From Anaerolineae bacterium (GTDB taxonomy: Bacteria; Chloroflexota; Anaerolineae; S140-20), in assembly GCA_027021705.1 (NCBI GenBank), contig JALUTT010000088.1, positions 1 through 37,919 on the forward strand: 37,919 bases of DNA, read 5' to 3'. The notes beneath the pieces are model-generated. The model ran no database searches, was not told where the DNA came from, and saw only the letters and a list, made by a program, of their open reading frames with translations. A program made the position numbers and the translations under genes. Below, piece after piece: positions 4,108-37,814 of the stretch (position 1 is the stretch's first letter; every line of letters starts with the position of its first letter).

Positions 4108-4145
4108 TCACCCATCGCCCGGCCCAGCCCGGACGCGGCGGGCTC

Positions 4146-15152: not shown

Positions 15153-15180
15153 GGGCGATGGCATAGGGACGCGCAAGGCA

Positions 15181-15210
15181 GGGGGGTGGCGTCACGGGCC
15201 ACCCCCCTTT
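15181..15210 (+). terminator. GC-rich hairpin after dnaK (weak terminator or mRNA stabiliser)
   Basis: GGGGGGTGGC-7nt-GCCACCCCCC followed by only TTT. Confidence 0.55.
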
Positions 15211-15243
15211 CAAGCGTGGGCACGGCCCAACAATCCGGCAAAC

Positions 15244-15342
15244 CCCTTTGTGCCCTTCGTGCTCTTCGTGTTCTTCGTGCCTTTCGTGCCCTTTGCGCCC
15301 TTCACACCCTTTGTGTTCTTCGTGCTCTTGGTGTCCTTCGTG
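15244..15342. repeat. Eleven nonamer repeats (YYYTTYGTG) between dnaK and grpE
   Basis: Reverse complement of the CACGAAG/CACAAAG nonamers at ~180-215 and 19470-19508. Confidence 0.9.
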
Positions 15343-15392
15343 TGTCGTGTGAACGTCCCAGAGACGGCGGAATCAGAACGGTGGAGTGAAGG

Positions 15393-16082
15393 ATGACGAA
15401 CCAGAACGGACGAAAGCGCATTCGCATCCCGGTACGAACGGTGGACCCCGACGAAGAGCGGCGGGCCGCCGAACAGACGATGGAGGTGCCGGCCGCCCTC
15501 CCGGCCGAGGAGCCGGAGCCCCTCGGCGGGCCGGCGGCGGAGGTCGAGGAGCCCCGAGCCGAGGCCCCCACCGCCCCGCCGGAGGCCCAGGGGGAAGGCG
15601 AGGCCCCCTGCCCCGAACCGGCCCCGGAGGCCGCCTCCGAAGCGGTGGAGGCATTGGAGGCGGAACTGGCCTCCTGGAAGGACCGGGCGCTCCGGCTCCA
15701 GGCCGAGATGGAGAACTACCGCAAGCGGATGGACCGCCGGGCGGAGGACCGGATCCGCCAGGAGCGGAAGCGGCTGCTGCGCACCTTCCTCACGGTGGCC
15801 GACAACCTGGAGCGGGCCCTGGCCCAGGGCGACCCCAACGATCCCCTCTATGAGGGCGTCGCCCTCACCCACCGGGAGCTGATGCGGCTCCTGGAGCAGG
15901 AGGGGGTGAAGCCCATCGAGGCGGTGGGTGCCCCCTTCGACCCGGCCCACCACGAGGCGGTGGCGACGACCGACAGCCGCAGCGAACCGATGGTAGTCGT
16001 GCAAGAGGTGGAGAAGGGCTACCTGCTGGACGACGAACTGCTGCGACCGGCCAAGGTGATCGTGGGCGGAGGGAACACGTAG
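15393..16082 (+). CDS. grpE: Nucleotide exchange factor GrpE
   Basis: [45 protein letters not shown]. Confidence 0.96.
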
Positions 16083-16125
16083 GAAAGCAGGAACCCGGTC
16101 GGCGCAGGACGGAGACGGAACGGCG

Positions 16126-17073
16126 ATGGAGTACAAGGACTACTACAAAATCCTGGGCGTCCCTCGGAACGCCACCGAGAAGGAGATCAAACGGGCCTTC
16201 CGCCGCCTGGCCCGCAAATACCACCCGGACGTGAACCCCGGCGACCCCGAGGCGGAGGCCCGCTTCAAGGAGATCAACGAAGCCTACGAAGTGCTCAGCG
16301 ACCCGGAGAAGCGGGCCAAGTACGACCAGTTGGGGGCGGACTGGCAGCGCTGGCAGCGGATGGGCGGTCGCCCCGAGGACTTCGACTGGAGCCGCTGGAC
16401 GAGCGCGGCGGGGCCGGGTGGCCAGCGCGTCTACGTCCGCTACGGGACGCCGGAGGACCTGGAGGACCTCTTCGGCGGGTCCAGCCCCTTCTCCGACTTC
16501 TTCGCCCAGATCTTCGGTGGGATGGGGGCCGGTCGGGGCTTCGAGTTCCGCCCCCGCCCCCAGCGGGGCCGGGACCTGGAGCACGAGGTGGAGATCACCC
16601 TGGAGGAGGCCTACCGGGGCACCACCCGCCTGCTGACCAAGGACGGACGGCGGCTGGAGGTCAAGATTCCGCCGGGGGTCAAGACCGGCTCCAAGGTGCG
16701 CATCGCGGGGGAAGGCGAGGCGGGCGTCGCCGGCGGCCAGGCCGGCGACCTCTACCTGCGCATCAAGGTCCTGCCCCACCCCCGCTTCGAGCGCCGGGGC
16801 GACGACCTCTACACCGAGGTCCCGGTGGACCTCTACACCGCCATCCTGGGCGGTGAGGTGCGGGTTCCCACCCTGAACGGCAGCGTCATCCTGACCATCC
16901 CGCCGGAGACCCAGAACGGGCGCATCTTCCGGCTGCGGGGCAAGGGGATGCCCCGGCTGAACCGTCCCCACGAACGCGGGGACCTCTACGCCACCGTCCA
17001 GGTGCGCCTGCCCCAGGGGCTGAGCCCCCGGGAGCGGGAGCTCTTCGAGGAATTGGCCCGGTTGAGGAAATAA
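16126..17073 (+). CDS. Class B J-domain co-chaperone (DnaJ/CbpA-like, no zinc finger)
   Basis: [12 protein letters not shown] motif, G/F region, DnaJ_C; no CxxCxGxG repeats. Confidence 0.92.
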
Positions 17074-17193: not shown

Positions 17194-17244
17194 GAAAGCG
17201 CTGAGGCGCACAGTCGTGCGCTCGCTATGCGAAGGAGGTCGAGG

Positions 17245-18519
17245 ATGAGTAATCAGCGAGGGGCCGGTTTCATCTTAAAGGCGATCGGCTGGCTGGTCCT
17301 GTTGGCCGTCATCACCTCGGTCAGTTGTCTTGGGAGCGCCGTGCTGGCCCCCAAGGTGAGTGAGTGGATCTACGGAACGGAAGTGGCGGTGGCTCCGGCC
17401 GTGGAGCAGCCCCCCACCCCCCAACCCACCACCGTCGCTCCCCCGGAGCAACCTTCGACGCCCAACGAACCGTCGGCCCTGCCGGCCGACGCCGACGCGG
17501 AGGAGCGGCTCATCGCCCAGGTCTACCGCCAGGTCAGCCCCTCCGTCGTCTACATCCAGGTGATCAAGCAGGTAGGGATCGAGATCCCCGGCATGCCCGG
17601 CATAGAGGCCGGCGTCGGCTCCGGCTTCGTCTGGGACCGAGAGGGCCACATCGTCACCAACTACCACGTCGTCCAGGAGGCCGATGTGGTTGAGGTGACC
17701 TTCCTGGACGGCACCCAGGCCCTGGCCGACGTGGTGGGCACCGACCCCCACTCCGACCTGGCCGTCGTCCAGGTGCGGGACGTGCCCCAGGAGGTCCTCA
17801 AGCCGGTGACGCCGGGGGATTCCGATCAACTCTTCGTCGGGCAGCGGGCCCTGGCCATCGGCAGCCCCTTCGCCCAGCAGTGGACGCTGACCGTCGGCGT
17901 CATCAGCGCCCTGGGCCGCACCATCCGCTCGGGCACCAGCCGCTTCTCCATCCCGGAGGTGATCCAGACGGACGCCGCCATCAACCCCGGTAACTCCGGC
18001 GGCCCGCTCCTGGACGACAGCGGTCGGGTGATCGGCGTCAACACGATGATCCTCTCAGGGGCCCGCTCCTCGTCGGGGGTCGGCTTCGCCGTGCCCATCA
18101 ACATCGTCAAACGGGTCGTCCCCGCCCTCATCGAGAAGGGCGAGTACGTCTACCCCTGGCTGGGCATCGCCGGCGTCACGCTGAACCGGGACCTGGCCGA
18201 GGCGATGGACCTGGACCCCAACCAGCGCGGGGCGATGGTCACCCAGGTCGAGCGGGGCGGGCCGGCCGACAAGGCGGGCCTGCGGGGGGCCGACCGGACG
18301 GTGGAGATCTTCGGCCAGGAGGTGGAGGTGGGCGGTGACGTGATCATCGCCATAGACGACCGGCCCGTCAAGGGGATGGACGATCTCATCGTCTACCTGG
18401 TCAAGGAGACCGAGCCGGGCCAGAAGGTCGTCCTGACGGTGCTGCGGGACGGCAAGGAGATGGAGATCCCCGTGACCCTGGGCGAGCGACCAAAGGCGGA
18501 GGAGATGCCGGGACGATGA
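17245..18519 (+). CDS. HtrA/DegP-like membrane-anchored serine protease with PDZ domain
   Basis: RBS AAGGAGG; N-terminal TM; GSGFV, TNYHVV, DLAVV, TDAAINPGNSGGPL; PDZ. Confidence 0.93.
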   Translation: MSNQRGAGFILKAIGWLVLLAVITSVSCLGSAVLAPKVSEWIYGTEVAVAPAVEQPPTPQPTTVAPPEQPSTPNEPSALPADADAEERLIAQVYRQVSPSVVYIQVIKQVGIEIPGMPGIEAGVGSGFVWDREGHIVTNYHVVQEADVVEVTFLDGTQALADVVGTDPHSDLAVVQVRDVPQEVLKPVTPGDSDQLFVGQRALAIGSPFAQQWTLTVGVISALGRTIRSGTSRFSIPEVIQTDAAINPGNSGGPLLDDSGRVIGVNTMILSGARSSSGVGFAVPINIVKRVVPALIEKGEYVYPWLGIAGVTLNRDLAEAMDLDPNQRGAMVTQVERGGPADKAGLRGADRTVEIFGQEVEVGGDVIIAIDDRPVKGMDDLIVYLVKETEPGQKVVLTVLRDGKEMEIPVTLGERPKAEEMPGR

Positions 18520-22763: not shown

Positions 22764-23216
22764 CTATCGGTCGGAGCCTGCTTCCTGATCAGGGAACTCC
22801 CGAGCCAGGAAATCCCGCACGGTGAGAATTGGAATACCAGCGTACTCACCCAAAGCCAGAAGGTGGCGATCGCCGGAGACCACGTAGGCAGCCCCCACCG
22901 CAACCGCGCAGTGGAGAAAGATGTCATCGTCAGGATCGGCGGCCACCACGGGGTCTCCCTCTGGTACCTGTACCTCGAACATAGAAGCGAGACTCATCGC
23001 ATAGGCCACCAGATCCGAGGGCGCCAATCCCAGTTGACTGAGGCGAGGCTGGAGCCGGTCATAGTCTAGCACTTCAGCCAGTTCAGCCAACATTGAGGGG
23101 GCCATACACAACTCCACCTGACCCTCCTCTGCCAAGCGCAGTAGGTTCCAGCACATTCCTCGCCACAGCAGCCCAGAGACCCATATGTTGGTATCAATCA
23201 CAAGGCGCACGTTCAC
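22764..23216 (-). CDS. PIN-domain toxin
   Basis: VIDTNIWVSG, DPDDDIFL..A, VVSGDRHLL. Confidence 0.9.
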   Translation of the reverse strand: MNVRLVIDTNIWVSGLLWRGMCWNLLRLAEEGQVELCMAPSMLAELAEVLDYDRLQPRLSQLGLAPSDLVAYAMSLASMFEVQVPEGDPVVAADPDDDIFLHCAVAVGAAYVVSGDRHLLALGEYAGIPILTVRDFLAREFPDQEAGSDR

Positions 23217-23662: not shown

Positions 23663-25798
23663 TCAAGGACTCTCCCCAAAAACCGCCTGGACCTCCTCGG
23701 GGCGGTAGAGCTCCAGCATCGCCTCCCACCAGGTGAGCCCCTGGGTCTTGCGAAACTCCCACCAGCGGATGTCCTCCCAGTAGTAACGCCAGCGGAAGAT
23801 GGCCGGCACCCGCTCCCAGCCATAGTCGGCCGCCAACGTGGTGAAGTCCACGTAGTAGCCCGTCGGGATGGGAACCTTGAGCCGCCCCCCCTCCCGCTCG
23901 GCCAGCCCCCCCTCGAAGCGGGCCTTCAGGTCCCAGGGGGCCTCCCGCAAGGGCCGGCCCATACTCCCGTCCTGCCGGGCCGTCCTCAAGTAGACCCGCC
24001 AGTAGGTGCGATAGCCGATCTCCTCCCGCACCACCTCCACCAACGGGGGCTCCTGGTCATAGAACCCCTGGCTGAAGGAGAAGGCCCGGCCCGCTTTGTG
24101 CCAGTCGTAGGGGGATTGGCCGGGCAGGGGGGGCGCTCCCAGACGCCGGATGGAATCCCCCAGCACCCCCAGGTAGTCTATCCCCGTCTCCTCCAGAACC
24201 CGCCGCCGCAGGGCGTTGAAAGAGTCGTCCACCCGGTCGGAGAGGAACTCCCGGTCGTCTCCCCCGTTGACGTCGGGCAGCCCCACCAGTGTGTAAGGGG
24301 GGCCATCGGAGGGCAGGGGGCGCACCTTCTCCAGGTAGAGGGGGGGCGAGGCCTCCGGAACGATGGACCGGGCCAGGGCGATGGTCTCCGGCGAGAGCGG
24401 ATGGGCCGTCCAGGTGGGCGGTCCGATCCGATCCTGCCCGCTGAAGGCCGGCCGGGCGATCCCCCAGCCGCTGATGCTGGCCACGATCAGGTGGGAAGCC
24501 CCGCCGCGCTCGTAGGTGTAAACCAGCGTCTGGCCGTCGGGGCCCCAGGCCGGGGTGCTCCCCTGGCCGAAGAGCTGGGTGCGGGCCTCGTCGTAGCCCC
24601 CGAAGCCGGCGTCCAGGCTATCCCAGTCGAAGGTGTTGATGTAGATGGTCGCATCGCTGTCCCGCCCGATGGTGAAGGCCAACTGGGTTCCATCGGGAGA
24701 CCAGGCCGGGTTGTCCTCGTCCAGGTCCGGCGTGTTGGTCAGGTTGACCACCGCCTCCTCCCGCGCCTGGTCCAGGGGGTAGAGGTAGATCTCCTTGTTG
24801 CCATCCCGGTAGGAGACGAAGGCGATGTGCCGGCCGTCGGGGGACCAGGCCGGCGCGAAGTCCGGCGCAGGGTCGTAGGTCAGCCGGATCGGTTCCTCGC
24901 CGAACTCCGTCATAATGTAGATGTCCAGGTTGCCGTCCCGATAGGCCTCGTAGGCGATGAACTTGCCGTCGGGTGACCAGGTGGGATGGGCCTCGTAGTC
25001 GGGGGAGCGGGTGAGCCGGATGAGGGCCAGGCTCTGCAGGTCCATCCGGTAGATGTCCCAGTTGTTCCCCCGGCGGGAGGCGAAGGCCAGCGTCTGCCCG
25101 TCGGGCGACCAAGCCGGGTCCACGTCCTCGGCGGGATGATAGGTGAGGCGCACCGGCTTCCGATCCCCCAGGTTGACGGCGTAGATGTCGGCGTTCCCCT
25201 CCCGGCGCAGGGAGAAGGCGATGGCCCCACCGCCGCCGAAAGGGGTGGGCGTGGGCGTGAGCGCGAGGGCGGCGAGCCGGTCTGCATCGGCCGGGGAGAG
25301 CACGGGCGTGGCCGGGGGAAGGGTGACCTGACCGGCCGAGGTCGCCGTCGGGGTGGCGGTGGGTGCGGACCGGGCCTGGCTCAGGCCGGCCACCTGAATC
25401 CCCAGGAGGCCCAGGTTGGTGAGGGCCAGCAGCAAGAGGAGGAGGGCGGTCGTCGGGCGGAGGAGGATGGGTTGGCTCAGCCGTTGGCGGTGGCGGCGCA
25501 CCCCCTCGGCGATCCGACGGCGCAGCCGGCGCTGCCCCGCCACCAGGGCAGCGAGGCGATCCCCGGCCCAGCGCCAGGGGCGCAGGACCAGGTCACGGAG
25601 GGCGCGGCCCAACCGGCGCAGGAGACGCAGCGGTAGGCCGAGCAGAGCGCCTCCCAACCGGTGCAAGAGGCGCAGCGGGAGACCGAGCAGAGCGCGGCCC
25701 CGACGGGCCAGGCCCCCCACGGCGGCGATGCCCCAGCGCAGCGGTGCGGTCAGGAACCGGCCTATGCGTTTCACCTGAGAGGGAGGATCGTCGAGCAT
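23663..25798 (-). CDS. Membrane-anchored TolB-like beta-propeller (PD40) protein with extra C-terminal domain
   Basis: Repeated PAWSPDG..IAF motifs; TM helix; Pro/Thr linker; start MLDDPP. Confidence 0.85.
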   Translation of the reverse strand: MLDDPPSQVKRIGRFLTAPLRWGIAAVGGLARRGRALLGLPLRLLHRLGGALLGLPLRLLRRLGRALRDLVLRPWRWAGDRLAALVAGQRRLRRRIAEGVRRHRQRLSQPILLRPTTALLLLLLALTNLGLLGIQVAGLSQARSAPTATPTATSAGQVTLPPATPVLSPADADRLAALALTPTPTPFGGGGAIAFSLRREGNADIYAVNLGDRKPVRLTYHPAEDVDPAWSPDGQTLAFASRRGNNWDIYRMDLQSLALIRLTRSPDYEAHPTWSPDGKFIAYEAYRDGNLDIYIMTEFGEEPIRLTYDPAPDFAPAWSPDGRHIAFVSYRDGNKEIYLYPLDQAREEAVVNLTNTPDLDEDNPAWSPDGTQLAFTIGRDSDATIYINTFDWDSLDAGFGGYDEARTQLFGQGSTPAWGPDGQTLVYTYERGGASHLIVASISGWGIARPAFSGQDRIGPPTWTAHPLSPETIALARSIVPEASPPLYLEKVRPLPSDGPPYTLVGLPDVNGGDDREFLSDRVDDSFNALRRRVLEETGIDYLGVLGDSIRRLGAPPLPGQSPYDWHKAGRAFSFSQGFYDQEPPLVEVVREEIGYRTYWRVYLRTARQDGSMGRPLREAPWDLKARFEGGLAEREGGRLKVPIPTGYYVDFTTLAADYGWERVPAIFRWRYYWEDIRWWEFRKTQGLTWWEAMLELYRPEEVQAVFGESP

Positions 25799-25805
25799 CG
25801 CCGTC

Positions 25806-25833
25806 ACTATACCACGCTTCGCCCGACTGTCAA
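25806..25833 (-). promoter_or_regulatory. Promoter for a probable leaderless transcript
   Basis: TTGACA-16-TATAGT, 7 nt before ATG 25798, no SD. Confidence 0.65.
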
Positions 25834-25976
25834 GGGGCAAGGGGCAGGGGGCAAGGGGCAAGGAGCAAGGGGCAGGGGGCAAGGGACAAGGGACAGTGGA
25901 CTGCGGACCACCTGACCACCCGACCAAGCGACCCCCCGACCAAGGACTGCGGACTGCGGACTGCGGACTGCGGACT
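25831..25976. repeat. Composite cassette (GGGGCAA)n-(GACCACC)n-(GGACTGC)n
   Basis: Fills the whole gap between the upstream stop codon and the -35 box. Confidence 0.9.
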
Positions 25977-28809
25977 ACTTATACCGCTCCCCCAGCGCCA
26001 CCAGCGCCCGGTAGTAGCCCTCGATGCTGGGGATGTAGTGGCGCTCGTGGCGGCTGTGGGGACCGATGCCCGACTGCCCCCAGACGACGGCCTGTCCTCC
26101 CGGCGCGAAGCGCCCGCTGGTGCCGGCCAGCTTCCGCCCGATGACCGGCGGCTCCCCCGTCACCTCCTGCACGGCGGCCTTCAAGTTCGCCAGGTGGGGG
26201 TTCTCCGGGTCGCAGGCCACCCCCGCTTCCATCACCTGCACCTCCAGCTCCAGCCCGGCCCCTTTGCAGTAGTCGGCGATGCGGGCCATCACCCCCTCCA
26301 GGTCGTCCTCGGGGATGGGCCGGATCTCCACACCCAGGTAGCCCACGTCGGCGGTGATGTTGTAGACGCCCGGCAGCCCCACGTTGATGAAGGGGAAACG
26401 GTAGGCGGTCTGCCAGCCATCGGAGGCCGAGATGGTCATCTGGGCCTCGATGAGGCTGGCGATGGCCCCCCGGGCGGCGGTCAGCACCGCCGCCATGTCG
26501 GGCAGCCGCCCTCCCAGCCCCGTGTGCTGGCGCTCCCCCCGGGCGACGACGGAGAAGCGGACGACGCCCCGGTTGGCGACGTGGATCGCCCCCATCCGCT
26601 CGTCCCCGCGCTCGCCCGTCCGCTCGCCGACGATCATCAGCTCCGGCGCGTAGCCCCACTCCCGCTCTAACTCGGCCAGGACGTGGGGAGTGCCGTAGGG
26701 CTCGCCCTCGCCGTTCTCCTCGTTGCCCACCAGCAGCAGGTTGATGGCCGGCTTCGGCCCCGGCCGGCGCATCATCTCTTTCATCCAGACCAGGTAGGTG
26801 GCGACGACGGTCTTCATGTCGGCGCTCCCCCGCCCCCAGAGGTAGTCGCCGTGGATCGTCGGCTCGAACTGCCCATCGTCGGGCTCCGGGGGCACGACGT
26901 CGAAGTGGCCGGCCAACATCACCGGCGCCCTGGCCCGACCGGGGAACCAGGCGAGCACCGCCGGGTAGGCCCCCCGGTCGAAGAAGCGGACCTCCAACCC
27001 GGCCCGGCGCAGGTAGCGGACGATGAAGCGGGCCGCCCGGAAGACCTCCTCGATCCGCTCCTGGGGGCAGTTGGTCACCGAGGGGATGCGGATCAGCTCC
27101 TGGGCCAGGGCCACGATCTCGCTCACCCGGTCTGGGTAGCCGACGGCCACCACGGCCGGCGTCGGCTCCACCTCGAAGGGGACGACGGCGACGGGGCTCT
27201 GCCGGGCCTCCTCCCGCAGCCCGTGGAGCAATCCCCGCAGCTTGGGCGCTTCGTCCCCCAGCCGCAGGTAGTCCTCGACGATCTGGGCCACCTCCCGCCG
27301 GACCTGCTCCTCCCGCTCGACGGCCAGCGCCTTGAGCACCTCCCAGGGGACGATGAGGGAGCCATCGGGGGCCTGCTCCCCCTTCCCCACCATCGCCCGG
27401 ACCCGCTCGCGGAGCCGCTGGGCTGTGTTCGGGCCCCCCTGGGCCATCGCCTGGAGGGGGGCCAACGACTCCCAGCGTCCCAGAGCTTCGGCCAGGGGGC
27501 GGACCTGCTCCAGCGTCCAGCGGAGGAAGTCGCGCATAGCGATGGGCCGCCCGGTGAAGGGGTCCTCGATCTCCGCCCGCAGCCCGTCCCGGGCCGCGAT
27601 CTCCTCGTTGCGCCGGACGCGGGCGATGTCGCGGGCGTTGTAGACGAAGGAGCGGGCGAAGGTGGGGTCGGCGTAGGTCTGGATGAGGAGCAGTTCCTTT
27701 AGCGCCAGGTTGGCGATGTCCAGGGCCAGATCGTGCCCCCCCTCGTCCGTCCGCACCTCGACGCGGCCCATAGGCAGGTCAATGCGGGCCAGCAGGTTCT
27801 CCACCTCGATCTCCCGGGCCACGTCCTCGATGCCCGTCCGCTCGTCCAGGCTGTAGATCCCCTTCTGGTAGAGGGCGTGGAGTTGCTCACTGGTGGCCTG
27901 GATGAGGCGGGCCACCGGCTCAACGTCGGAGCGGGCCCGGGTTGGGGTCCAGTTGTTGTTGCCGAAGCGGACACCCCGCCGCACCAGGTCGTAGGAGATG
28001 CGGATGTAGTCGGCGTGGCTGCGGTAGAGGTCGGGCACGTCCAGGTCGGGCGGGTTAGGGAAGGTCAGGATGCGGTTGGAGTCGTACTCCGTCAGCAGGA
28101 CGGCGGGCTCCCCCTGGATGAGGGCCGGACGCATCGGGGTGCTGGCGGTGGTGGCGATGAAGAGGGCGGCGAAGGGGCGCAGCAGCCGGGCCCCCCGGAT
28201 GTAGACGCGGTTCTTGTAGCTGTCCAGGTGGCCGTTGCCCCGCTCGTCGGGGGGCAGGTGGAGGAAGTCCCAGCTCAGCAGCGCCTCGGGCAGAGAGACG
28301 TTGGCGTGGAGGCCGGCGGTGGCCAACTGCTCGCCGAAGAGGGCGACGCACCGCTCCAGGTAGCGCCGCTTGGCCAGGCTCCAGCCACCGGGGATGCTCT
28401 CCGGCCCCACCTGGACCGGGTAGAGGATGTTGCCGTGGAAGATGTAGAAGCGCTCTCCGAAGGAGAGGCCAACCCGGGCCAACACGTTCAGCAGCGCCCC
28501 TTCCAACAGCCGGGCTTCGTAGACGGCCCCCTCGGGCGAGTAGTAGGGCCGGGTGGCCCACTCCGTCATCCAGTGGTAGACCTCCCGCTGGTTCCGGTCG
28601 GCCAGCCAGTCGGGGATGTAGTGGTCCCGCAGGTAGTCAATGAAGCTCTGACGCTCCGGCCCATAGCCGACCTGGAGCACAGGGCGGAGGTCGGCGTCGA
28701 GGATGTTCCACTCCACTTCCAGCCCGCAGGTGCCGCTCTCGAAGCGGGACTGGAGCGACGCCTCGCGGGCGAGCTGATACTTCTCGGCGAATCGGGTGAT
28801 CTCGTTCAT
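25975..28809 (-). CDS. Fusion of a glutamate-cysteine-ligase-family (GCS2-like) carboxylate-amine ligase and an M20 (ArgE/DapE-like) deacylase
   Basis: N-half TCGLEVEWNILD, GLHANVS, RVEVRTD; C-half LAGHFDVVP, GRGSADMK, NEENG, GPHSRHE. Confidence 0.82.
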   Translation of the reverse strand: MNEITRFAEKYQLAREASLQSRFESGTCGLEVEWNILDADLRPVLQVGYGPERQSFIDYLRDHYIPDWLADRNQREVYHWMTEWATRPYYSPEGAVYEARLLEGALLNVLARVGLSFGERFYIFHGNILYPVQVGPESIPGGWSLAKRRYLERCVALFGEQLATAGLHANVSLPEALLSWDFLHLPPDERGNGHLDSYKNRVYIRGARLLRPFAALFIATTASTPMRPALIQGEPAVLLTEYDSNRILTFPNPPDLDVPDLYRSHADYIRISYDLVRRGVRFGNNNWTPTRARSDVEPVARLIQATSEQLHALYQKGIYSLDERTGIEDVAREIEVENLLARIDLPMGRVEVRTDEGGHDLALDIANLALKELLLIQTYADPTFARSFVYNARDIARVRRNEEIAARDGLRAEIEDPFTGRPIAMRDFLRWTLEQVRPLAEALGRWESLAPLQAMAQGGPNTAQRLRERVRAMVGKGEQAPDGSLIVPWEVLKALAVEREEQVRREVAQIVEDYLRLGDEAPKLRGLLHGLREEARQSPVAVVPFEVEPTPAVVAVGYPDRVSEIVALAQELIRIPSVTNCPQERIEEVFRAARFIVRYLRRAGLEVRFFDRGAYPAVLAWFPGRARAPVMLAGHFDVVPPEPDDGQFEPTIHGDYLWGRGSADMKTVVATYLVWMKEMMRRPGPKPAINLLLVGNEENGEGEPYGTPHVLAELEREWGYAPELMIVGERTGERGDERMGAIHVANRGVVRFSVVARGERQHTGLGGRLPDMAAVLTAARGAIASLIEAQMTISASDGWQTAYRFPFINVGLPGVYNITADVGYLGVEIRPIPEDDLEGVMARIADYCKGAGLELEVQVMEAGVACDPENPHLANLKAAVQEVTGEPPVIGRKLAGTSGRFAPGGQAVVWGQSGIGPHSRHERHYIPSIEGYYRALVALGERYK

Positions 28810-28870
28810 AGCGACCTAGAGTTAGCGAATGGCAGCTTAGCGAATGGCAGCTTAGCGGATAGCGGCCTAG
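28810..28870. repeat. TTAGCGAATGGCAGC / TAGCGG repeats filling the intergenic gap
   Basis: Two exact 15-mers plus related units. Confidence 0.75.
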
Positions 28871-30180
28871 CGGGCAAGGGCTTGGAGGCCCTCCAGGAGC
28901 CGCTGGGCTGCGGCTTGGGTCCGCTCCGGCGGCAGGGCGTAGGAGAAGCGGATCCAGCGGGCTCCGTGGCGGGAGAAGTAGACGCCGGGGACGATGGCCA
29001 GACCGTGCTCTTCGGCCAGGTACTGCCCCAGCACCGCCGAGTCCTCCATGCCGGCCTTCTCCAGCCAGGGGGCCACGTTGATGAAGGCGTAGTAGCCCTT
29101 GCCCAGGATGGCGGTGAGGCCGTGCTCCTGGAAGAAGCGGCGCAGAACGGCCCGGCTGGCGTTGGTCGGCTCGACGATGGTCGCCGCCGCCCGATCGAAG
29201 CCCATCTCGTAGGCCGCGATGGCCACCGCCTGGCTGTAGAAGCTGGGGATGACACCGTGGGAGGCCCGGCTCTGGATGAACCGGATCACCCGCTCCGGAG
29301 CCACCAGGTGGGCGTTGCGGATGTTGGAAGCCCCCAGCGACTTGGTGATCCCGTCCAGGATGATCAAGTGCTCCCGCTCCTCCGGCTCGAAGGCGAGCAG
29401 GAAGCGGTTGAGATCCATCGGCTCCTCGTCGGTCACCCGGTGGTAGATCCAGTCGTAGAGGACGAAGGGGATGCCCAGCCGCAGAGCGGCCTTGCCCAGG
29501 GCGACCTGCTGTTCGAGGGAGAGGGTGTGGCCGGTGGGGTTATCGGGCGAGGTGACGATGAGGGCGGCCACCTTGCGCCCGTGGCGTTCGGCCACCTCCA
29601 CGCAGGCGGCGATCCCCTCCTCGGTGTAGGCCCAGCCCTCTTCCTCGCGGCCGGGGGCCAGCATCACGTTGGCCCCGACGCCGTAGGGTCCCCAGTTGTA
29701 GCTGATCCAGGGGACGCGAGAGACGACGATGACGTCGCCGATCCGCCCGTGGCCCAGGAAGAGCATCGCCTGGTAGACCTTCTCCAGGGCATCGCGCCCC
29801 CCCTGGGCGGCGATGATGTTGGCCGGCCCCCAGCCCGTCGCCGAATCGAGCTGCCAGTAGTGCTCGACCACGGCCTGACGGAAGAGGTCGCAGCCGTAGG
29901 GCATATCGTAGCCGGTGCCGTGCTCCCGCTGGAGCTGGTGCGCCCGGTCCAGCACCTCCGGCGGCACGCCCGGCAGGCTGGCCCCGCCATCCCCCTGGGA
30001 GGCGTCGTAGACGGGACGGTCGGGATAGCGCTCCCGGAAGGTGGCCAGCGACTTCTTGATGAGGAACATCTTGGAAGGGGGGATAGGCATCATCGCCGCC
30101 GGGTAGCCGTTCACCGGCACCAGGGCCTGGGGAGGGACGACGAACTCAGGGGTATCGGGGGATGGGGTCTGGGTGGACAT
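28867..30180 (-). CDS. PLP-dependent aminotransferase, class I/II
   Basis: SPDNPTG, YDWIY, DGITKSLG..R, IVPG.YF, IRFSYA; RBS AGGAGG before ATG 30180. Confidence 0.9.
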   Translation of the reverse strand: MSTQTPSPDTPEFVVPPQALVPVNGYPAAMMPIPPSKMFLIKKSLATFRERYPDRPVYDASQGDGGASLPGVPPEVLDRAHQLQREHGTGYDMPYGCDLFRQAVVEHYWQLDSATGWGPANIIAAQGGRDALEKVYQAMLFLGHGRIGDVIVVSRVPWISYNWGPYGVGANVMLAPGREEEGWAYTEEGIAACVEVAERHGRKVAALIVTSPDNPTGHTLSLEQQVALGKAALRLGIPFVLYDWIYHRVTDEEPMDLNRFLLAFEPEEREHLIILDGITKSLGASNIRNAHLVAPERVIRFIQSRASHGVIPSFYSQAVAIAAYEMGFDRAAATIVEPTNASRAVLRRFFQEHGLTAILGKGYYAFINVAPWLEKAGMEDSAVLGQYLAEEHGLAIVPGVYFSRHGARWIRFSYALPPERTQAAAQRLLEGLQALAR

Positions 30181-30214
30181 CGTTTGCCTCCTGTGTGCAC
30201 TGCTCTGGACATAG

Positions 30215-30245
30215 AAAAAGCCCCCGGACGGGCGGGTCCGGGGGC
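30215..30245 (-). terminator. Intrinsic (attenuator) terminator upstream of the aminotransferase
   Basis: mRNA GCCCCCGGAC-ccgccc-GUCCGGGGGC-UUUUU. Confidence 0.85.
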
Positions 30246-30271
30246 GATCTTCCGTCGGAAAAGGGCTGCGC

Positions 30272-30373
30272 TCAGAGCCGATGAACAGCGTGAGCCGGAC
30301 CCGCCGGGTGGGGGTCAAGGGTGGTATTGGTACGAGTGCGGGTGTTCAGGCTCACGATACGAAAAAGGCTCAT
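30272..30373 (-). CDS. Thr-rich attenuator leader peptide MSLFRIVSLNTRTRTNTTLDPHPAGPAHAVHRL
   Basis: GAGGA before ATG; 5 Thr in codons 11-18; contains an 11-nt segment (30295-30305) complementary to the terminator 5' arm and loop. Confidence 0.72.
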   Translation of the reverse strand: MSLFRIVSLNTRTRTNTTLDPHPAGPAHAVHRL

Positions 30374-30410
30374 CGGTCCATCCTCACAAGGTGGCTGATA
30401 GAGCGAGAGG

Positions 30411-30439
30411 AGTGTAACACAAAAGGGCGAGAACGTCAA
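30411..30439 (-). promoter_or_regulatory. sigma70-type promoter of the attenuated operon
   Basis: TTGACG-17-TACACT with TG extension. Confidence 0.72.
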
Positions 30440-32587: not shown

Positions 32588-35176
32588 CTACCGGCCGGCG
32601 ACGACCACCGATGGCAGCGTGACCTGGTCGCCGGCCGGTTCCCCATCCACCTGCACCGGCCAGCGTTCCAGCGTGGCCAGCCAGTAGACCCCCGTCGTCA
32701 GCCGGTACTCCCCCGGCGGTGCGTCGGCCGGCAGCGCCAGCCGGTGGCGCTGGACGAGGATGTCCCCCACCCGCCACTGCTCCACGGGCACGCCCAGCCC
32801 ATCACCGACGAGGACGGGCGCTCCTCCCGGCCCCACCAGGTGCAGCATCACCGAGAGGGGGCGATCCGGCAGCCCCTCCACCCGCCACCAGGTCGTCACC
32901 TCCACCGTCTGCCCCGGCGCGATGGAGCGGGCGTCCACGCCCCCGTAGCCCAGGAAGGCTAGGTCCCCCACCCGGACGGACGCTTCGGGCCGGGAGCGAG
33001 GAGGGGGCACGGGGCCGGCAGGCTGCTCGTAGACGGCGAAGGGAGGGAGTTGGGTCGGGCGGCGCTGTTCGTAGCTCAGCCGGGCATCCGCCAGCCGCGC
33101 CTCGATGAAGGCATCCTCCATCCGGGCCGTCTCCCGGTAGAGGGCGTACCAGCCCGGCTCCTCCCCGCCCGTGGGATAGAGCCAGCCCTGGGTGCAGTCG
33201 AAATAGGCCATCCGCAGGTCGTCCCGTCCAAAGCCCTCGGCGGCCGCCGGGGGCGGAAGGGGGGCTACCGGGGCAGTGCACTGGGCCAGCCAGGTGGGCG
33301 CCGGCTCCGGCGGGAGGACCCGATAGACGAAGAGGGCGTAGCCGGGACGGGCCACTGGCTCCCGGTGGCGGAACCAGTCGTAGGTGTCGGGCTCGGCCAC
33401 CATCACCCCTTGCAGCGTCGTCGCCCCCAGGACGTAGGTGCCGGGAGCCGGGTTGAAGCGCCGGGGGAGGACGGGAGGGCCGCCGGGGGCGGGCGGGATC
33501 GGTTCGTAGGCGATGCCGTAGAGGGCCGGGTCGGCGTAGGTGTAGTAGCTCAAGCGCACCGGCCCCTCCCCGGTCTCATCCAGGTAGGCCCGCAGCGCCT
33601 TGAAGGACTGTCCCCAGTCCAGGTTGGAGTCCACCAGGTAGCAGTACCCCCCCGCCGGACCGCCGGCCAGCTCGTTGAAGAAAGCCAGGTAGTGGGGCGC
33701 GATGCGCAGGGTGCCGAAGAGATACCAGGCGAGCAGGACGAGAAACGTGATGCGTGGCGCGTGAGGCGTGAGGCGCGAGGTGGGTGGTCGGGTGGTCGCC
33801 TGGTCACTTGGTCGGGTGGTCGCTTGGTCATCTGGTCGGGTGGTCGCTCGGTCGGGTGGTCGCTTGGCCCCTGCCCCTTGCTTGCCCCTTGCCCCTTGCC
33901 CCTTGTCACTTGGTCGGGTGGTCGGGTGGTCATCTGGTCGGGTGGTCGGGTGGTCATCTGGTCGGGTGGTCGGGTGGTCATCTGGTCGGGTGGTCAGGTG
34001 GTCGGCGGTCCGCGGTCGGCGATCCGCAGCAAGGCGGGCGACGAAGACATCGAGGAAGGGGAGCAAGACCAGGAGGAAGCGGTAGCCGATGGCGATGGTG
34101 CTGAAGAGGGTGACCAGGCCGTAGGCGACCGGGTAGGCCCAGAGGGGGAGCTCCTCCCGCCAGCGCGACGGCCCCGCCCCCAGGAAGACCACCACCGCGC
34201 CGAGGAGAAGGAGCAGGAGGGGAAGCGGCGTCTTCAGGAGGAAGGCCAGGGGGTAGTAGTACCACCAGCCGGTGGCCCGGATCTCCCCCATCAGGAAGGC
34301 GGTGTGGCCCTGGCGGGCGTGACGCTGCACCCCCAGCCAGGTCTCCCACTGGGTGGCGAAGGGGAGGGGCCAGGGGGGCGCACCGGGCCGCTCCAGAGGG
34401 CGCCACTCGAAGCGGTAGAGCCCCCACAGCACCAGCAGGGCCAGCCCCACCAGGACGACTGCCTCCCCCAGCGCCCGCCCGATCCCCCGCCGCCGAGCCC
34501 CCAGGAGGGCGTGGAGGGGAACCAGGACGAGGAGGGCGAAGAAGCCCGACGACTTGGCGCTCAGGGTCAGCCCCAGGGCCAGGCCGGCCGCCAAGAGGGC
34601 GCTCCCGGAGGGCCGCTGCAGGTGCCGGAAGACCAGGTAGGCGCCGGCGAAGCCGAAGACGGCCAGCCCCAGGTCGGTGGTGGCCAGGGTGGCGTGGGCG
34701 AGGAGGTTGGGATCGAAGGCGAAGAGGGCCAGGGCGAACAGGCCGGCCCGACGACCAAAACGCTCGGCGGCCCAGCGGAAGACAAGGGCCGCGCCCAGAA
34801 GGGCCAGGAGCAGGATGGGGAGCCGGGCGGCGAAGGTGGCCGCCTCCAGGCCCTGCCCCAGGCCGGAGACGAAGGCCGGGGCGAAGCGGGCCAGGTCCGC
34901 CTCCGCCCATCCCGGCAGCGCCGTCACGTCGGGGCCGGGCTGCAGGAGGAGCGGCAGCGCCGTCAGCACGAAGAGGAGGGGAGGGTGAGCGGCCGCCGGG
35001 ATCAGCCGCAGGTCCCCCGTCCGCAGGTAGGCGTAGCCCGGCCCCAGGAAGGCCGGTTCGTCGGCCGTCAGGGAGAGACGGGGGATCGCCATCACCCCCT
35101 GGGCGAAGAAGATCAGGAGGAGCAGGATCGCCCCGGCGCGGGAGCGGGCGGGTCGGGTCAGGGGGCTCCTCCTCAC
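32588..35176 (-). CDS. GT-C (ArnT/PMT-like) membrane glycosyltransferase with C-terminal extracytoplasmic domain, paralog B
   Basis: TADEP, HPPL, FDPNLLAH..LATTD, KTPLP, YRFLL, YLVDSNLDWGQ; in-frame low-complexity insert. Confidence 0.85.
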   Translation of the reverse strand: MRRSPLTRPARSRAGAILLLLIFFAQGVMAIPRLSLTADEPAFLGPGYAYLRTGDLRLIPAAAHPPLLFVLTALPLLLQPGPDVTALPGWAEADLARFAPAFVSGLGQGLEAATFAARLPILLLALLGAALVFRWAAERFGRRAGLFALALFAFDPNLLAHATLATTDLGLAVFGFAGAYLVFRHLQRPSGSALLAAGLALGLTLSAKSSGFFALLVLVPLHALLGARRRGIGRALGEAVVLVGLALLVLWGLYRFEWRPLERPGAPPWPLPFATQWETWLGVQRHARQGHTAFLMGEIRATGWWYYYPLAFLLKTPLPLLLLLLGAVVVFLGAGPSRWREELPLWAYPVAYGLVTLFSTIAIGYRFLLVLLPFLDVFVARLAADRRPRTADHLTTRPDDHPTTRPDDHPTTRPDDHPTTRPSDKGQGARGKQGAGAKRPPDRATTRPDDQATTRPSDQATTRPPTSRLTPHAPRITFLVLLAWYLFGTLRIAPHYLAFFNELAGGPAGGYCYLVDSNLDWGQSFKALRAYLDETGEGPVRLSYYTYADPALYGIAYEPIPPAPGGPPVLPRRFNPAPGTYVLGATTLQGVMVAEPDTYDWFRHREPVARPGYALFVYRVLPPEPAPTWLAQCTAPVAPLPPPAAAEGFGRDDLRMAYFDCTQGWLYPTGGEEPGWYALYRETARMEDAFIEARLADARLSYEQRRPTQLPPFAVYEQPAGPVPPPRSRPEASVRVGDLAFLGYGGVDARSIAPGQTVEVTTWWRVEGLPDRPLSVMLHLVGPGGAPVLVGDGLGVPVEQWRVGDILVQRHRLALPADAPPGEYRLTTGVYWLATLERWPVQVDGEPAGDQVTLPSVVVAGR
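33746..34028 (-). repeat. In-frame composite 7/8-mer cassette within paralog B
   Basis: Encodes ADRRPRTADHL(TTRPDDHP)3..KGQGARG..SRLTPHAPRIT. Confidence 0.92.
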
Positions 35177-35177
35177 G

Positions 35178-37694
35178 TCAGCGCCCTCCCCCCACCGTCG
35201 TCAGGACCATCCGGTCCGCCTCCGAGCCGTCGGCCATCCGCACCGGCCACCGTTCCATCGTGTCCAGCCAGTAGGCGCCGGCCACCACGGCGTACCGGTC
35301 GGCCACCGCCCCCTCGGGGAGGGGGAGCCGATGGCGCTGGACGATGATGTCGCTGGGCCGCCACGCCCCGACGGGCACGCCCAGCCCATCCCCCACGGCA
35401 ACCGGCCTGCCGTCCGGTCCCAGCAGGTGGGCCATCAGCGAGAGAGGGCGGGCCGGTACGTCTTCCACCCGCCAGAAGGTCCAGAGGGTCACCACCCGCC
35501 CCGTCGTAAGCTCCGTTCGGTCCAGCCGGTAGCCCAGGAAGGCCAGCGGCCCCTCGATCCGCCCCGCCTCCCAGCCCTCGAAGTCGGGCAGCCCGCCGGC
35601 CTCGACGCGGAAGAGGGCGTAGGCCGGCGAACCGTCGGGGTGCCGGGCCTGCAACTCCGGCGTGGCCCCCGGCGGCGGCGGCGCGTCCGGGGGCAACAGG
35701 TAGTCGCCGGGCCGCCTCCGGCCGTCGTCGGCCGGATAGACCCAGCTCTGCCCGCAGTCGAAGGGGATCAGCCGCAGGTCGGTGCGCCCGAAGCCGGCCC
35801 ACACCGCCTCCGGCGGGAGCAAGGGCGCAGGCGCGGCGCAGAGGGCCACCCAGGCCGGCGGCTCTCGGGGCGGTACCCTGTAGAGGAAGAGGGCGTACCC
35901 CAGCCGGGCCAGCGGCTCGTGGCTGCGGAACCAGGCGTAGGTGTTCACGTCGGGGGTGTAGACGCCTTGGAGGACCGTCGCGCCGATGGCGTAGAAGCCG
36001 GGGGCCGGATCGAAAGGGGCGAAGGGGACGGCGCGGGGGTCCGGCGGCAGGAAGTCGGCCGCCACGCCGTAGACCTGGGGGCGGGCCGGGCTGAAGTGGG
36101 CGTAGTAGACCCGCTCCACCCCCGTCGCCCGCATCCAGTCGCGCAGCTGCCCCAGGTTCTGGCCCCAGTCCAGGTTGGAGTCCACCAGGTAGCGGTAGCC
36201 CCCCGCCGGGCCGCCGGCCAGTTCGTTGAAGAAGGCCAGGTAATGGGGCGCAACGCGCCAGGTGCCGAAGAGATACCAGGCAAGCAGGACGAGAAACGTG
36301 ATGCGTGGCGCGTGAGGCGTGAGGCGCGAGGTGGGTGGTCGGGTGGTCGCTTGGTCATCTGGTCGGGCGGTCGCTCGGTCGGGTGGTCGCTTGGCCCCTG
36401 CCCCCTGCCCCTTGCCCCTTGCCCCTTGCCCCTTGCCACTTGCCACTTGCCCCTTGCCACTTGCCACTTGCCCCTTGCCACTTGGTCGGGCGGTCAGATG
36501 GTCGGCGGTCGGCGGTCGGCCGTCGGCGGTAGGCCGTCGGCGGTCCGCAGCAAGGCGGGCAACGAAGATGTAGAGGAAGGGAAGCAGGGGGAGCAGGTGC
36601 CGGTAGCCGATGTCCACGCTGCTGAAGAGGGCCGAGAGGGCGTAGAGGGCTGGGAAGAGGGTGAGGGGCGAGTTGCGAATGGCGGATTGCAGATTGCAGA
36701 TTGCAGATTGCAATTTGCAATTCGCAATTCGCAATTTACAGATTGCGGCGAAGGCGAGGAGGAGCAGCATCGGCAGGGGGGTTTTGAGGGCGAAGGCGAC
36801 GGGGAAGTAGTACCACCAGCCCCGCTCGCCGTTTTGCCCCATCAGGAAGGCCGGGTGGCCCAGCCGGTAGTGCTCCTGGAGGGAGCGGTAGATGGCCAGG
36901 TGGGTGGCCGCCGGGATGGGGAAGGGGATGCCGGGCAGAGAGGCGACCTGAAAGCCGTAGACAGCCCAGAGGGTCAGGCCGGCCAGGAGGAGCGCGACGA
37001 GGGCCGCCCCCAACCGCCGGAGGGGGGAATGGACCTGGGGAAGCAGAAGGAGCAGCAGCCCCACCGTCGGCACCAGGAGCAGGGCAGAGACCTTGGAGGC
37101 CAGGGCCATCCCCAGGGCAACGCCCACGGCCGGCAACCGTCTTGGCGAGGGCCGACGTCGGTAACGATCCAGCAGGTAAAGGGTTAAAACAATGAAAAGG
37201 GTCACCGCCATATCGGTGGTGATGAGGGAGCCGTGGGCGATGAGGTTGGGGTCGAAGGCGAGGAGGGCCAGGGCAAGGAGACCGCCCCACATTCCATAGC
37301 GGTCTGCAGCCCAGCGGAAGACCAGCGCGGCCAGGAGCATCGTCAGCAGGATGATGGGCAACCGGCCGGCCAGGGCCAGGCGGGCGGGATGAGGATACCG
37401 CCAGACCACCGCGTCGGTCACCGCCGAGAGGCTGGCGATCTCCCAGCCCTCCACCGTGCGGGGATCGGGCAGGTCCGACTGCAACAGCAGAGGTGCAGCG
37501 GCCATTACGTTAGCGAGGGGAGGGTGAATGTGGACCGGCTGCAAGCGCCAATCCCCCGTGCGCAGGGTGGTGTAGCCCACCGCCAGGTGGGGTCCTTCGT
37601 CGAAGGTGATGGACGCCGTCCAAGCGTGCCCCATCGCCTGGGCGAAGAGGGCCAGCAACAGCGAAATGGCTAGAAATCCCTTCTTGGTGCTCAA
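35178..37694 (-). CDS. GT-C (ArnT/PMT-like) membrane glycosyltransferase, paralog A
   Basis: TFDEG, HPPL, FDPNLIAHG..TTD, KTPLP, YRHLLP, YLVDSNLDWGQ; TTG start with GAGGGAGG upstream. Confidence 0.85.
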   Translation of the reverse strand: MSTKKGFLAISLLLALFAQAMGHAWTASITFDEGPHLAVGYTTLRTGDWRLQPVHIHPPLANVMAAAPLLLQSDLPDPRTVEGWEIASLSAVTDAVVWRYPHPARLALAGRLPIILLTMLLAALVFRWAADRYGMWGGLLALALLAFDPNLIAHGSLITTDMAVTLFIVLTLYLLDRYRRRPSPRRLPAVGVALGMALASKVSALLLVPTVGLLLLLLPQVHSPLRRLGAALVALLLAGLTLWAVYGFQVASLPGIPFPIPAATHLAIYRSLQEHYRLGHPAFLMGQNGERGWWYYFPVAFALKTPLPMLLLLAFAAICKLRIANCKLQSAICNLQSAIRNSPLTLFPALYALSALFSSVDIGYRHLLPLLPFLYIFVARLAADRRRPTADGRPPTADHLTARPSGKGQVASGKGQVASGKGQGARGKGQGAGAKRPPDRATARPDDQATTRPPTSRLTPHAPRITFLVLLAWYLFGTWRVAPHYLAFFNELAGGPAGGYRYLVDSNLDWGQNLGQLRDWMRATGVERVYYAHFSPARPQVYGVAADFLPPDPRAVPFAPFDPAPGFYAIGATVLQGVYTPDVNTYAWFRSHEPLARLGYALFLYRVPPREPPAWVALCAAPAPLLPPEAVWAGFGRTDLRLIPFDCGQSWVYPADDGRRRPGDYLLPPDAPPPPGATPELQARHPDGSPAYALFRVEAGGLPDFEGWEAGRIEGPLAFLGYRLDRTELTTGRVVTLWTFWRVEDVPARPLSLMAHLLGPDGRPVAVGDGLGVPVGAWRPSDIIVQRHRLPLPEGAVADRYAVVAGAYWLDTMERWPVRMADGSEADRMVLTTVGGGR
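36297..36550 (-). repeat. In-frame composite 7/8-mer cassette in paralog A, same site as in B
   Basis: Encodes ADRRRPTADGRPPTADH..(KGQVASG)2KGQGARG..SRLTPHAPRIT. Confidence 0.92.
36668..36746 (-). repeat. Second in-frame heptamer insert (TTGCAGA/TCGCAAT) in paralog A only
   Basis: Encodes ICKLRIANCKLQSAICNLQSAIRNS. Confidence 0.9.
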
Positions 37695-37772
37695 ACCCTC
37701 CCTCGCTTGCGTGAGAAATCTCCTTCCCTCCCGCAGATTCCTCGTGACCTGGGGGAGGGTGACAACGGGGAG

Positions 37773-37801
37773 ATTATAACACGCCCTTTCTCGGCAGCCA
37801 A
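37773..37801 (-). promoter_or_regulatory. Promoter of the glycosyltransferase pair
   Basis: TTGGCT-17-TATAAT with TG extension. Confidence 0.62.
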
Positions 37802-37814
37802 CCGCTCCAGATTA

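Follow-up and report, generated by a model that had tools for sequence, protein, structure and literature searches.

In the DapD/DapC/DapE route an intermediate is acylated by acyl-CoA transfer, transaminated and deacylated. In the LysW route a gamma-glutamyl amide serves as a temporary handle, provided by a carrier protein and the ATP-grasp enzyme LysX and removed by the M20 hydrolase LysK, with kinase and reductase steps and the class III aminotransferase (AT) LysJ in between. A further arrangement is the glutamine transaminase/omega-amidase pair of methionine salvage (MtnE/MtnU), for which a published account (PMC6302742) describes glutamine as the alpha-amino donor, the hydrolysis of 2-oxoglutaramate (ketoglutaramate) that makes the transfer irreversible at the cost of one ATP, and the view that this 'ketoglutaramate ratchet' 'may go far beyond' methionine salvage. 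Enterobacterial attenuators (thr, his, trp, ilv), in turn, combine a promoter, a short open reading frame (ORF) with a codon run, and mutually exclusive antiterminator and terminator structures. Here we describe a locus on contig JALUTT010000088.1 of an Anaerolineae bacterium (GenBank assembly GCA_027021705.1), whose 37,919 nucleotides (nt) are called the window below, in which a leader-peptide attenuator precedes a gene for a class I/II AT and a second gene for one 944-residue protein that joins a ligase domain to an M20 hydrolase domain. This AT/fusion pair had been singled out in a first-pass annotation of the sequence, and both the ORFs and the Pfam and fold matches agree with that description; the operon probably serves aspartate supply, its induction following a shortage of amino acids derived from aspartate.

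When set beside these systems, the module resembles each of them in part. The logic proposed for it below is that of the methionine-salvage pair, a glutamate amide being the alpha-amino donor, although it holds a dedicated GshA-fold ligase instead of glutamine synthetase, its acceptor would be oxaloacetate, its hydrolase is a fused M20 metalloenzyme and not a nitrilase-superfamily omega-amidase, and its AT is not specifically glutamine-transaminase-like. With DapD/DapC/DapE it shares the acylate-transaminate-deacylate order, an M20 domain most similar to DapE and a class I AT like some DapC, whereas its acylation would be an ATP-dependent ligation rather than an acyl-CoA transfer, and the DapE cut-off is missed (99 versus 284 bits). 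Unlike the LysW route, the module has no LysX, LysW carrier or LysZ/LysY, a separate LysX-LysY-LysZ-LysJ cluster lying elsewhere in the genome. Its ligase has the fold of GshA and YbdK (GCS2), with conserved acidic and His residues in matching order, and differs from them in being fused to a hydrolase and linked to an AT. As for the attenuator, it has the parts of the enterobacterial ones, but it is found in Chloroflexota and carries a mix of Thr and Asn (plus Arg and Asp) codons that, to our knowledge, is not known from described attenuators. A full-text literature search, subscription journals lying outside its scope, and the accessible part of the GapMind 2026 preprint gave no description of the fusion, the module or the Thr/Asn leader, consistent with the first-pass annotation, which had not recognized the fusion as characterized; public annotation calls it only 'succinyl-diaminopimelate desuccinylase' or 'M20 hydrolase'. 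What had not been described is the combination, its regulation and its probable target, the enzyme families and the overall logic being known already.

The attenuator occupies about 30213-30439 of the minus strand, and its region folds better than all of 200 shuffles (z = -2.9). Judged from its sequence, the element is a classical leader-peptide attenuator (Table 1), in which a ribosome stalled at the Thr/Asn codons would leave the antiterminator free to form. Its conservation was explored in the 58 related loci whose AT gene is preceded by 300 nt or more of sequence, a leader being defined as a short ORF with at least five Thr/Asn in a 10-residue core. Such Thr/Asn-rich leaders appear in 43 of the 58 Chloroflexota-type loci, the reverse complement, used as control, giving 5 of 58; in 41 of the 43, the leader is succeeded by a hairpin and a T run. 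In the 43 cores, which sum to 430 residues, T occurs 170 times, N 115, R 47, D 27 and K once, with T, N, R and D together making up 359. Outside the Thr/Asn run, on the contrary, the peptides vary freely in length (16-48 residues), sequence and C-terminus. Alignment of 27 leaders further reveals an element inside the ORF, CGGGGCRUUGG, that copies the 3' arm of the terminator and complements its 5' arm; the resulting 9-pair antiterminator has 95.1% of cells paired versus 30-54% in slid controls, and one of its pairs covaries (G-C in 15, A-U in 9), the shuffle control on this alignment calling for caution, as the sequences are related. Leader, terminator and antiterminator are present and conserved, and the earlier proposal that the attenuator points to amino-acid supply is borne out.

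Rfam at gathering score gave 0 matches in the window and 0 in nine related loci, and no riboswitch or T-box was found. A scan of the source genome for leader-type ORFs with terminators found none besides that of the module, so that it offers no internal control that leader codons match operon products. The idea that Lys codons in the leaders track the diaminopimelate (DAP) route was dropped, as genomes G002-G004 have LysA and leaders without Lys. In Aminicenantia-type loci (L095-L102), a conserved G+C hairpin followed by TTTTTCGTATCGG lies about 100 nt upstream of the AT start, directly before the ribosome-binding site; no Rfam match was obtained in the two scanned (L095 and L099), and it may be a different regulatory element. 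In another locus (L104), the intergenic region before the AT gene contains some eight CACTTTT(CA) units in tandem, at a distance of about 150-250 nt from the AT.

Further, independent support for the regulatory picture comes from a divergent split form of the module. In four low-GC metagenome loci, reached through a distant stand-alone relative (P0257, 30% identity), separate, tightly packed or overlapping genes encode the ligase (569-592 residues), the AT (450-463) and the M20 hydrolase (388-394), in that order, the AT and M20 genes being confirmed by Pfam in two of the four (L107 and L109). This gene order is the one predicted by a ligate-transaminate-hydrolyse sequence. In three of these loci, which are all those with readable upstream DNA, there is an Asp/Asn/Lys leader ending in ...MRDNKN(Y/K)(D/Y).GFLLL, behind which come antiterminator and terminator hairpins; in L110 it stands directly before the ligase gene, and the upstream DNA of L108 is too short to judge. 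The L109 operon opens with an asparagine synthetase A of the asparaginyl-tRNA-synthetase-like kind (NF005054, 385.8 bits, cut-off 309), 22 nt before the ligase gene. Searches for other stand-alone ligases with residues 1-530 of the fusion returned mostly truncated or partial fusions, and open frames of 1357 and 1439 residues that looked like triple fusions of AT, ligase and M20 proved to be out-of-frame ORF extensions.

The AT matches PF00155 (91 bits), as expected for a class I/II aminotransferase dependent on pyridoxal 5'-phosphate (PLP). It reaches no NCBIfam equivalog, all scores remaining far under cut-off, including those for characterized aspartate aminotransferases (AspATs; 69.6 bits against a cut-off of 550 and 65.4 against 617). 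Its nearest relatives by sequence in the PDB are nonetheless the class Ib AspATs 1j32 (E 2e-15) and 1bkg (E 1e-14), with whose PLP lysine the Lys of ...DGITKSLG... aligns, as do the Asn, Asp/Tyr and C-terminal Arg positions; the PLP-binding positions are conserved across 61 orthologues. Arg128, in a GGRD motif at least 95% conserved among these orthologues, takes the place of the Lys in the GGK motif of 1j32 and 1bkg, a lysine that in the Thermus AspAT binds the distal carboxylate. The AT belongs to a divergent subfamily closest to class Ib AspATs. It shares 23-25% identity with the other class I ATs of the source genome, and it is no closer to the YbdL-type transaminase of that genome (57.8 bits) than to the AspAT-type one (58.2 bits). 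One further AT of the genome (contig C9:4218-5426) passes the 'LL-diaminopimelate aminotransferase' model PRK09276 (540 bits versus 507), with the DAP pathway otherwise missing from this genome; we regard it as a probable general transaminase and an annotation trap.

The ligase half of the fusion has no Pfam match of its own and only a weak gshA_cyano one (33 bits, cut-off 249), although many homologues of the fusion carry precomputed PF04107 (GCS2) assignments. A structure model of residues 1-550, built on 30 homologues, reached a predicted local distance difference test score (pLDDT) of 87 and a predicted template-modelling score (pTM) of 0.90, and Foldseek matched it to YbdK (1tt4/1r8g), GshF (3ln7) and GshA (3nzt/1v4g) with E values from 3e-10 to 1e-7, probability 1.00 and query-normalized template-modelling scores of 0.44-0.54, 2d32 (GshA) being matched too. 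More distant matches included plant and yeast glutamate-cysteine ligases (GCLs), PafA/Dop and glutamine synthetases. At the sequence level, the ligase-domain profile matches YbdK (E 3e-4) over the VEVR motif and GshF over the GIHxN motif, with H168/N170 aligned to GIHYN of GshF and E351/R353 to VEVR of YbdK. E31, E33, E76, E83, H168, N170, R291, R293, E351 and R353 are invariant in 30 sequences, and we take them to have the roles of the corresponding GshA residues. The absence of catalytic residues from a structural model had been named beforehand as what would speak against the candidate pathway; they are present and invariant, and the fold is matched. On the model, the ligase half is thus placed in the glutamine synthetase/glutamate-cysteine synthetase (GS/GCS) fold class of carboxylate-amine ligases, with 12-18% identity to the solved GshA/YbdK members. 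Within this class it forms an isolated family, since phmmer, run exhaustively with the ligase domain against 1.84 billion representative proteins, gave only 138 matches, mostly fragments of the same family; a search of the ESM Atlas yielded only its own cluster and leads resembling Glu-Cys ligases.

Regarding the C-terminal half, PF01546 covers residues 631-939 with 79 bits (cut-off 24.6). The metal ligands H635, D637, D664, E697/E698, E729 and H918 align to the motifs of DapE and 2rb7 and are invariant in 30 homologues; thus, as had been reported for this peptidase, the metal-binding motifs are retained, and the domain looks catalytically intact. None of the characterized equivalogs is reached, the scores being 95-99 bits for DapE models (best 99.4, cut-offs 284-381), 91 for DapE-ArgE (217.6) and 36 for LysK (363). 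In the full-length model (pLDDT 83), the best structural match of the domain is 2rb7, an M20 protein without assigned function, followed by DapE structures, with the Cys-Gly dipeptidases CN2 and Dug1p (ranks 17-27) and the poly(aspartate) hydrolase 7ljh (rank 41) lower down.

The fusion has at least 1551 homologous protein clusters. Its best 120 homologues are 57-98% identical over 895-980 residues, those with names coming from Chloroflexi, Anaerolineales, Aminicenantes and Phycisphaerae, and identity across phyla amounts to 54-65% for this 940-residue protein. Among contigs sampled at one genome per species, 303 genome stretches encode a relative. Of these, 80 loci were kept for neighbourhood counts, and 68 of them had at least 1300 nt of upstream DNA: an upstream AT on the same strand is no more than 600 nt away in 48, stands further off on that strand in 17 more, behind unrelated inserts (WD40/glyoxalase, HisKA, DNA methylase, NUDIX, glycosyltransferase), and was not found in 3. 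The fusion is hence conserved beside the AT, and the proposal that the three activities form one unit is supported by this linkage. No other functionally consistent neighbour was found in the 80 loci, the recurrent His_Phos_1 (22 loci), MgsA (16), FGE-sulfatase (11) and GNAT (10) genes looking like lineage-level synteny; a thiol pathway of the EgtA/B/C/E kind, suggested by the FGE-sulfatase gene, was dropped, this gene lying about 4 kb away and in only 11 loci.

Of 251 genomes sampled from its own phylum, 6 hold the module, the source genome included and the other five all belonging to one genus; in the phylum of an Aminicenantes-labelled metagenome-assembled genome (MAG), 27 of 251 do. It occurs in single genera within families, and the ligase domain of the window is 64% identical to that of this MAG and 54-56% to other Chloroflexota copies. 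The closer similarity to the Aminicenantes copy, together with the single-genus occurrence, suggests horizontal spread of the module.

The lysine and arginine pathways were looked for in the source genome (94.9% complete, 5.19 Mb, 183 contigs). DapB, DapF and LysA gave 0 matches at E<=0.001, the same searches matching in 11, 9 and 13 of 14 control genomes, and no DapL (TIGR03542) was found over cut-off; therefore, there would be no tetrahydrodipicolinate to protect. ArgC-ArgB-ArgD lie on one contig, and contig C144 (about 18.8-24.6 kb) carries LysX (355 bits), an ArgC/LysY paralogue, LysZ (432 bits), a LysJ-like transaminase and homocitrate synthase, which assigns lysine to the aminoadipate/LysW route and arginine to its usual one. 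The ArgC match on the short contig C74 (2525-3544) was reported with one in-frame TGA; the ORF 2489-3538 is open and the stop is probably at the end of the match. In five other module-bearing genomes, LysA is over cut-off in three (related genomes of Anaerolineae type), split into two frames in one and below cut-off in one. The module is thus independent of the lysine route, being present with and without LysA.

Profiling against missing asn and thr genes, as proposed in the first-pass annotation, revealed no gap, AsnB, aspartokinase, ThrB and ThrC being over cut-off in all five module genomes examined; in addition, the source genome has Asd and a homoserine-dehydrogenase-like gene beside aspartokinase. 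As the canonical routes are present, the module adds capacity and does not replace any known step to lysine, arginine, threonine or asparagine. Between the aspartokinase/homoserine dehydrogenase and aspartate-semialdehyde dehydrogenase genes there is a 1179-residue methyltransferase-like gene (contig C19:10121-13660) with a weak match to BREX PglX. Taken together, the conserved unit, the ligase fold class, the intact M20 domain and the role in amino-acid supply that had been proposed for this locus all stand, and the DapD/C/E, ArgA/D/E and LysX/J/K analogies fail as guides to its target, given (i) the lack of DapB, DapF and LysA, (ii) the separate ArgC-B-D and LysX-Y-Z-J sets, and (iii) leader codons that are those of Thr and Asn, and not of Lys or of Arg alone.

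The module points instead to an undescribed route supplying aspartate-family amino acids, and not lysine or arginine. Threonine and asparagine take the aspartate skeleton, and arginine synthesis uses aspartate through argininosuccinate. The residues of the leaders (T, N, R and D) therefore all need aspartate, which, together with the split-form leader and asnA of L109 and the AspAT-like AT, is the ground on which the assignment to aspartate supply made above is based. The AspATs being the nearest solved relatives of the AT, and its invariant Arg at the distal-carboxylate site, count for it as well.

As to how aspartate would be made, we tentatively put forward an ATP-driven, irreversible transamination through ligase-amidase cycling of a gamma-glutamyl amide, in which the product, the acyl donor, the carrier and every chemical step are inferred. 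The ligase would join the gamma-carboxylate of glutamate to an amine carrier at the expense of ATP, giving a gamma-glutamyl amide; the AT would move the alpha-amino group of this amide to oxaloacetate, giving aspartate and an N-substituted 2-oxoglutaramate; and the M20 domain would hydrolyse this succinyl-like amide to 2-oxoglutarate, with the amine returning to the ligase. The net reaction would be Glu + oxaloacetate + ATP -> Asp + 2-oxoglutarate + ADP + Pi. The relatives of the ligase fold, GshA, GshF, plant and yeast GCL, PafA and glutamine synthetase, activate the gamma-carboxylate of glutamate (YbdK being a structural-genomics entry). Transfer of the alpha-amino group of the amide is preferred over amination of a keto group in the amine part because only the former yields a product of the aspartate family, and an N-substituted 2-oxoglutaramate, as a succinyl-like amide, would suit a DapE-like M20 domain, in line with the higher scores against DapE than against LysK. 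Such a ratchet would account for the fusion of ligase and hydrolase, through recycling of the carrier, as well as for the presence of the AT, the gene order of the split form and the regulation.

Several aspects weigh against the aspartate reading and its proposed chemistry. Cells with glutamine synthetase could run the ratchet on glutamine, which leaves the need for a dedicated ligase unexplained, and known omega-amidases belong to the nitrilase superfamily and not to M20. On the regulatory side, Asp codons are only 27 of the 430 core residues, when one might look for them in a direct sensor of aspartate, the Aminicenantia-type loci have an upstream hairpin and T run but no Thr/Asn leader, and the asnA linkage comes from one locus. 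The source genome, moreover, has another AspAT-like gene (contig C20, 534 bits to PRK07682) and two YbdL-like transaminases, and the patchy distribution (6/251 and 27/251 genomes) makes the module accessory rather than core. Finally, the upstream neighbours in the Aminicenantia-type loci, a ProA-like aldehyde dehydrogenase in four of eight or a PLP decarboxylase in three of eight, fit a semialdehyde or diamine reading at least as well.

These neighbours bring back the protect/deprotect scheme of the earlier annotation, in which the ligase would gamma-glutamylate the alpha-amine of an amino-oxo acid (ring-opened tetrahydrodipicolinate, or the semialdehyde of glutamate, aminoadipate or aspartate), the AT would add a second amine, and the M20 domain would deprotect the resulting diamino acid, that is, DAP, ornithine, lysine or 2,4-diaminobutyrate. 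Both its three-enzyme logic and the ligase-AT-M20 order of the split form fit, as do the closeness of the M20 domain to DapE, its weak LysK match (36 bits), and Arg as the third commonest leader residue (47/430); the ProA-like gene, directly upstream where it occurs, has a C-terminus that reads like gamma-glutamyl phosphate reductase, Pfam giving only Aldedh. We nonetheless regard this scheme as unlikely, for the source genome shows no DapB, DapF or LysA match and holds full separate gene sets for arginine and LysW-type lysine, the module occurs with and without LysA, and the leader codons are those of Thr and Asn, with Lys once in 430; no diamino acid is obviously needed under Thr/Asn shortage, and neither threonine nor asparagine has a second amino group for a transaminase to install on an N-protected intermediate. 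The same regulatory evidence would serve a trapping of oxaloacetate, a heat-labile compound, in which the ligase would spend ATP to amidate its 4-carboxylate with ammonia or an amino acid, the AT would convert the 2-oxosuccinamate-type product to asparagine or a beta-aspartyl amide, and the M20 domain would free aspartate, so that scarce or unstable oxaloacetate would be drawn into the aspartate family. Asn being the sole residue common to both leader types, the hydrothermal-vent label of the DNA runs that hold at least half of the window, and the poly(aspartate) hydrolase 7ljh among the fold matches all agree with such trapping; on the contrary, we know of no characterized member of the GS/GCS/PafA fold that activates anything other than the gamma-carboxylate of glutamate, most homologues come from MAGs without a thermophile label, and AsnB is found in all five module genomes; we rate it slightly below the protect/deprotect scheme.

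The union of opposed activities in one polypeptide also recalls the glutathionylspermidine synthetase/amidase pair, and the fusion might likewise set the pool of a gamma-glutamyl dipeptide or thiol (e.g., gamma-Glu-Cys or gamma-Glu-Asp), with the AT supplying one of the amino acids. The GshA-like fold and the Cys-Gly dipeptidases among the M20 matches are in line with this, but the linkage to an AT, which in the split form even lies between ligase and hydrolase, and the Thr/Asn attenuator would go unexplained, and DapE-type matches rank above the dipeptidases; we consider such a role unlikely too. Least probable, and hardly credible, is that the Thr/Asn-rich ORF is no sensor and encodes a precursor, scaffold or carrier peptide modified by the three enzymes, in the manner of peptides that the ribosome makes and that are modified after translation (RiPPs), with the hairpin setting the precursor-to-enzyme ratio. 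A short ORF directly upstream of modifying-type enzymes and followed by a terminator would be expected in that case, and PafA/Dop, which act on the terminal Glu of peptides, share the ligase fold; however, the leaders have only the Thr/Asn run in common, with variable length and C-termini, the downstream element is kept as RNA that pairs with a terminator arm, and the Aminicenantia-type loci keep the enzymes (ligase domain 53-64% identical) without such an ORF. The remaining probability goes to an explanation not yet thought of.

Both genes of the module have the third-position G+C content of real genes in this window of about 70% G+C (0.90 for the AT and 0.95 for the fusion). The PD40 gene that follows them (Table 1) may be co-transcribed with the fusion and lies outside the conserved unit; when the ORFs of the 80 related loci are clustered, the 25 clusters of widest occurrence include neither it nor the upstream Metallophos_2 gene. 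Elsewhere in the window there is a STAND/TPR trio, composed of a BTAD-AAA_16-TPR gene at 399-4115(-), an all-TPR gene at 5469-7796(+) and a CHAT-AAA_16-TPR gene at 7923-11072(+), a cluster for signalling or possibly for defence that has no relation to the module. A DnaK-GrpE-DnaJ operon at 13236-17073(+) is followed by an HtrA-type protease at 17227-18519(+), a PIN-domain gene stands beside an overlapping, unannotated 151-residue ORF of the opposite strand in the region 22764-23216(-), and two adjoining PMT_2-type glycosyltransferases of about 870 residues each, at 32588-35176(-) and 35178-37811(-), are dolichyl-phosphate-mannose protein mannosyltransferase-like.

Table 1. Features of the AT/fusion locus, with positions in the window.
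Feature	Position	Strand	Details
Sigma-70-like promoter	30411..30439	-	TTGACG, 17 nt spacer, TACACT with TG; 1 site versus a mean of 0.1 in 50 shuffles; consensus match only
Leader ORF MSLFRIVSLNTRTRTNTTLDPHPAGPAHAVHRL	30272..30373	-	33 codons plus stop; GAGGA ribosome-binding site upstream; predicted from sequence
Regulatory codon run N-T-R-T-R-T-N-T-T	30320..30346	-	Leader codons 10-18
Proposed antiterminator 5' half GGGUCCGG	30295..30302	-	Complementary to CCGGACCC in terminator 5' arm and loop; read by eye
Intrinsic terminator	30213..30245	-	10-bp stem with 9 G-C pairs, 6-nt loop, T run; narrower limits 30220-30245; ends about 33 nt before the AT start codon
Aminotransferase (AT) gene	28867..30180	-	437 residues from ATG; a longer TTG frame extends to 30318
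Fusion gene	25975..28809	-	944 residues; starts 57 nt after the AT gene
GS/GCS-fold ATP-dependent carboxylate-amine ligase domain	27160..28809	-	Fusion residues 1-550; last element a long helix spanning residues 489-537
M20 (DapE/ArgE-like) di-metal amidohydrolase domain	25975..27147	-	Fusion residues 555-944 plus stop codon
PD40 beta-propeller protein gene	23663..25927	-	754 residues; 47 nt downstream of the fusion; Pfam PD40 and DPPIV_N

The regulation towards the aspartate family, together with the failure of the lysine and arginine analogies, reframes what should be assayed in a module that is widespread in uncultured anaerobes, among them Chloroflexota, Acidobacteriota of the Aminicenantes type and others. 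Should the ratchet fail, the module would still mark an undescribed three-step pathway whose inducing signal is now known. If the ratchet is true, bacteria would have a high-affinity, starvation-induced route to aspartate that stands to the ordinary AspAT as glutamine synthetase-glutamate synthase (GS-GOGAT) stands to glutamate dehydrogenase; such an ATP-driven transamination would be a principle so far unknown in the biosynthesis of amino acids, and metabolic engineering would gain a useful part.

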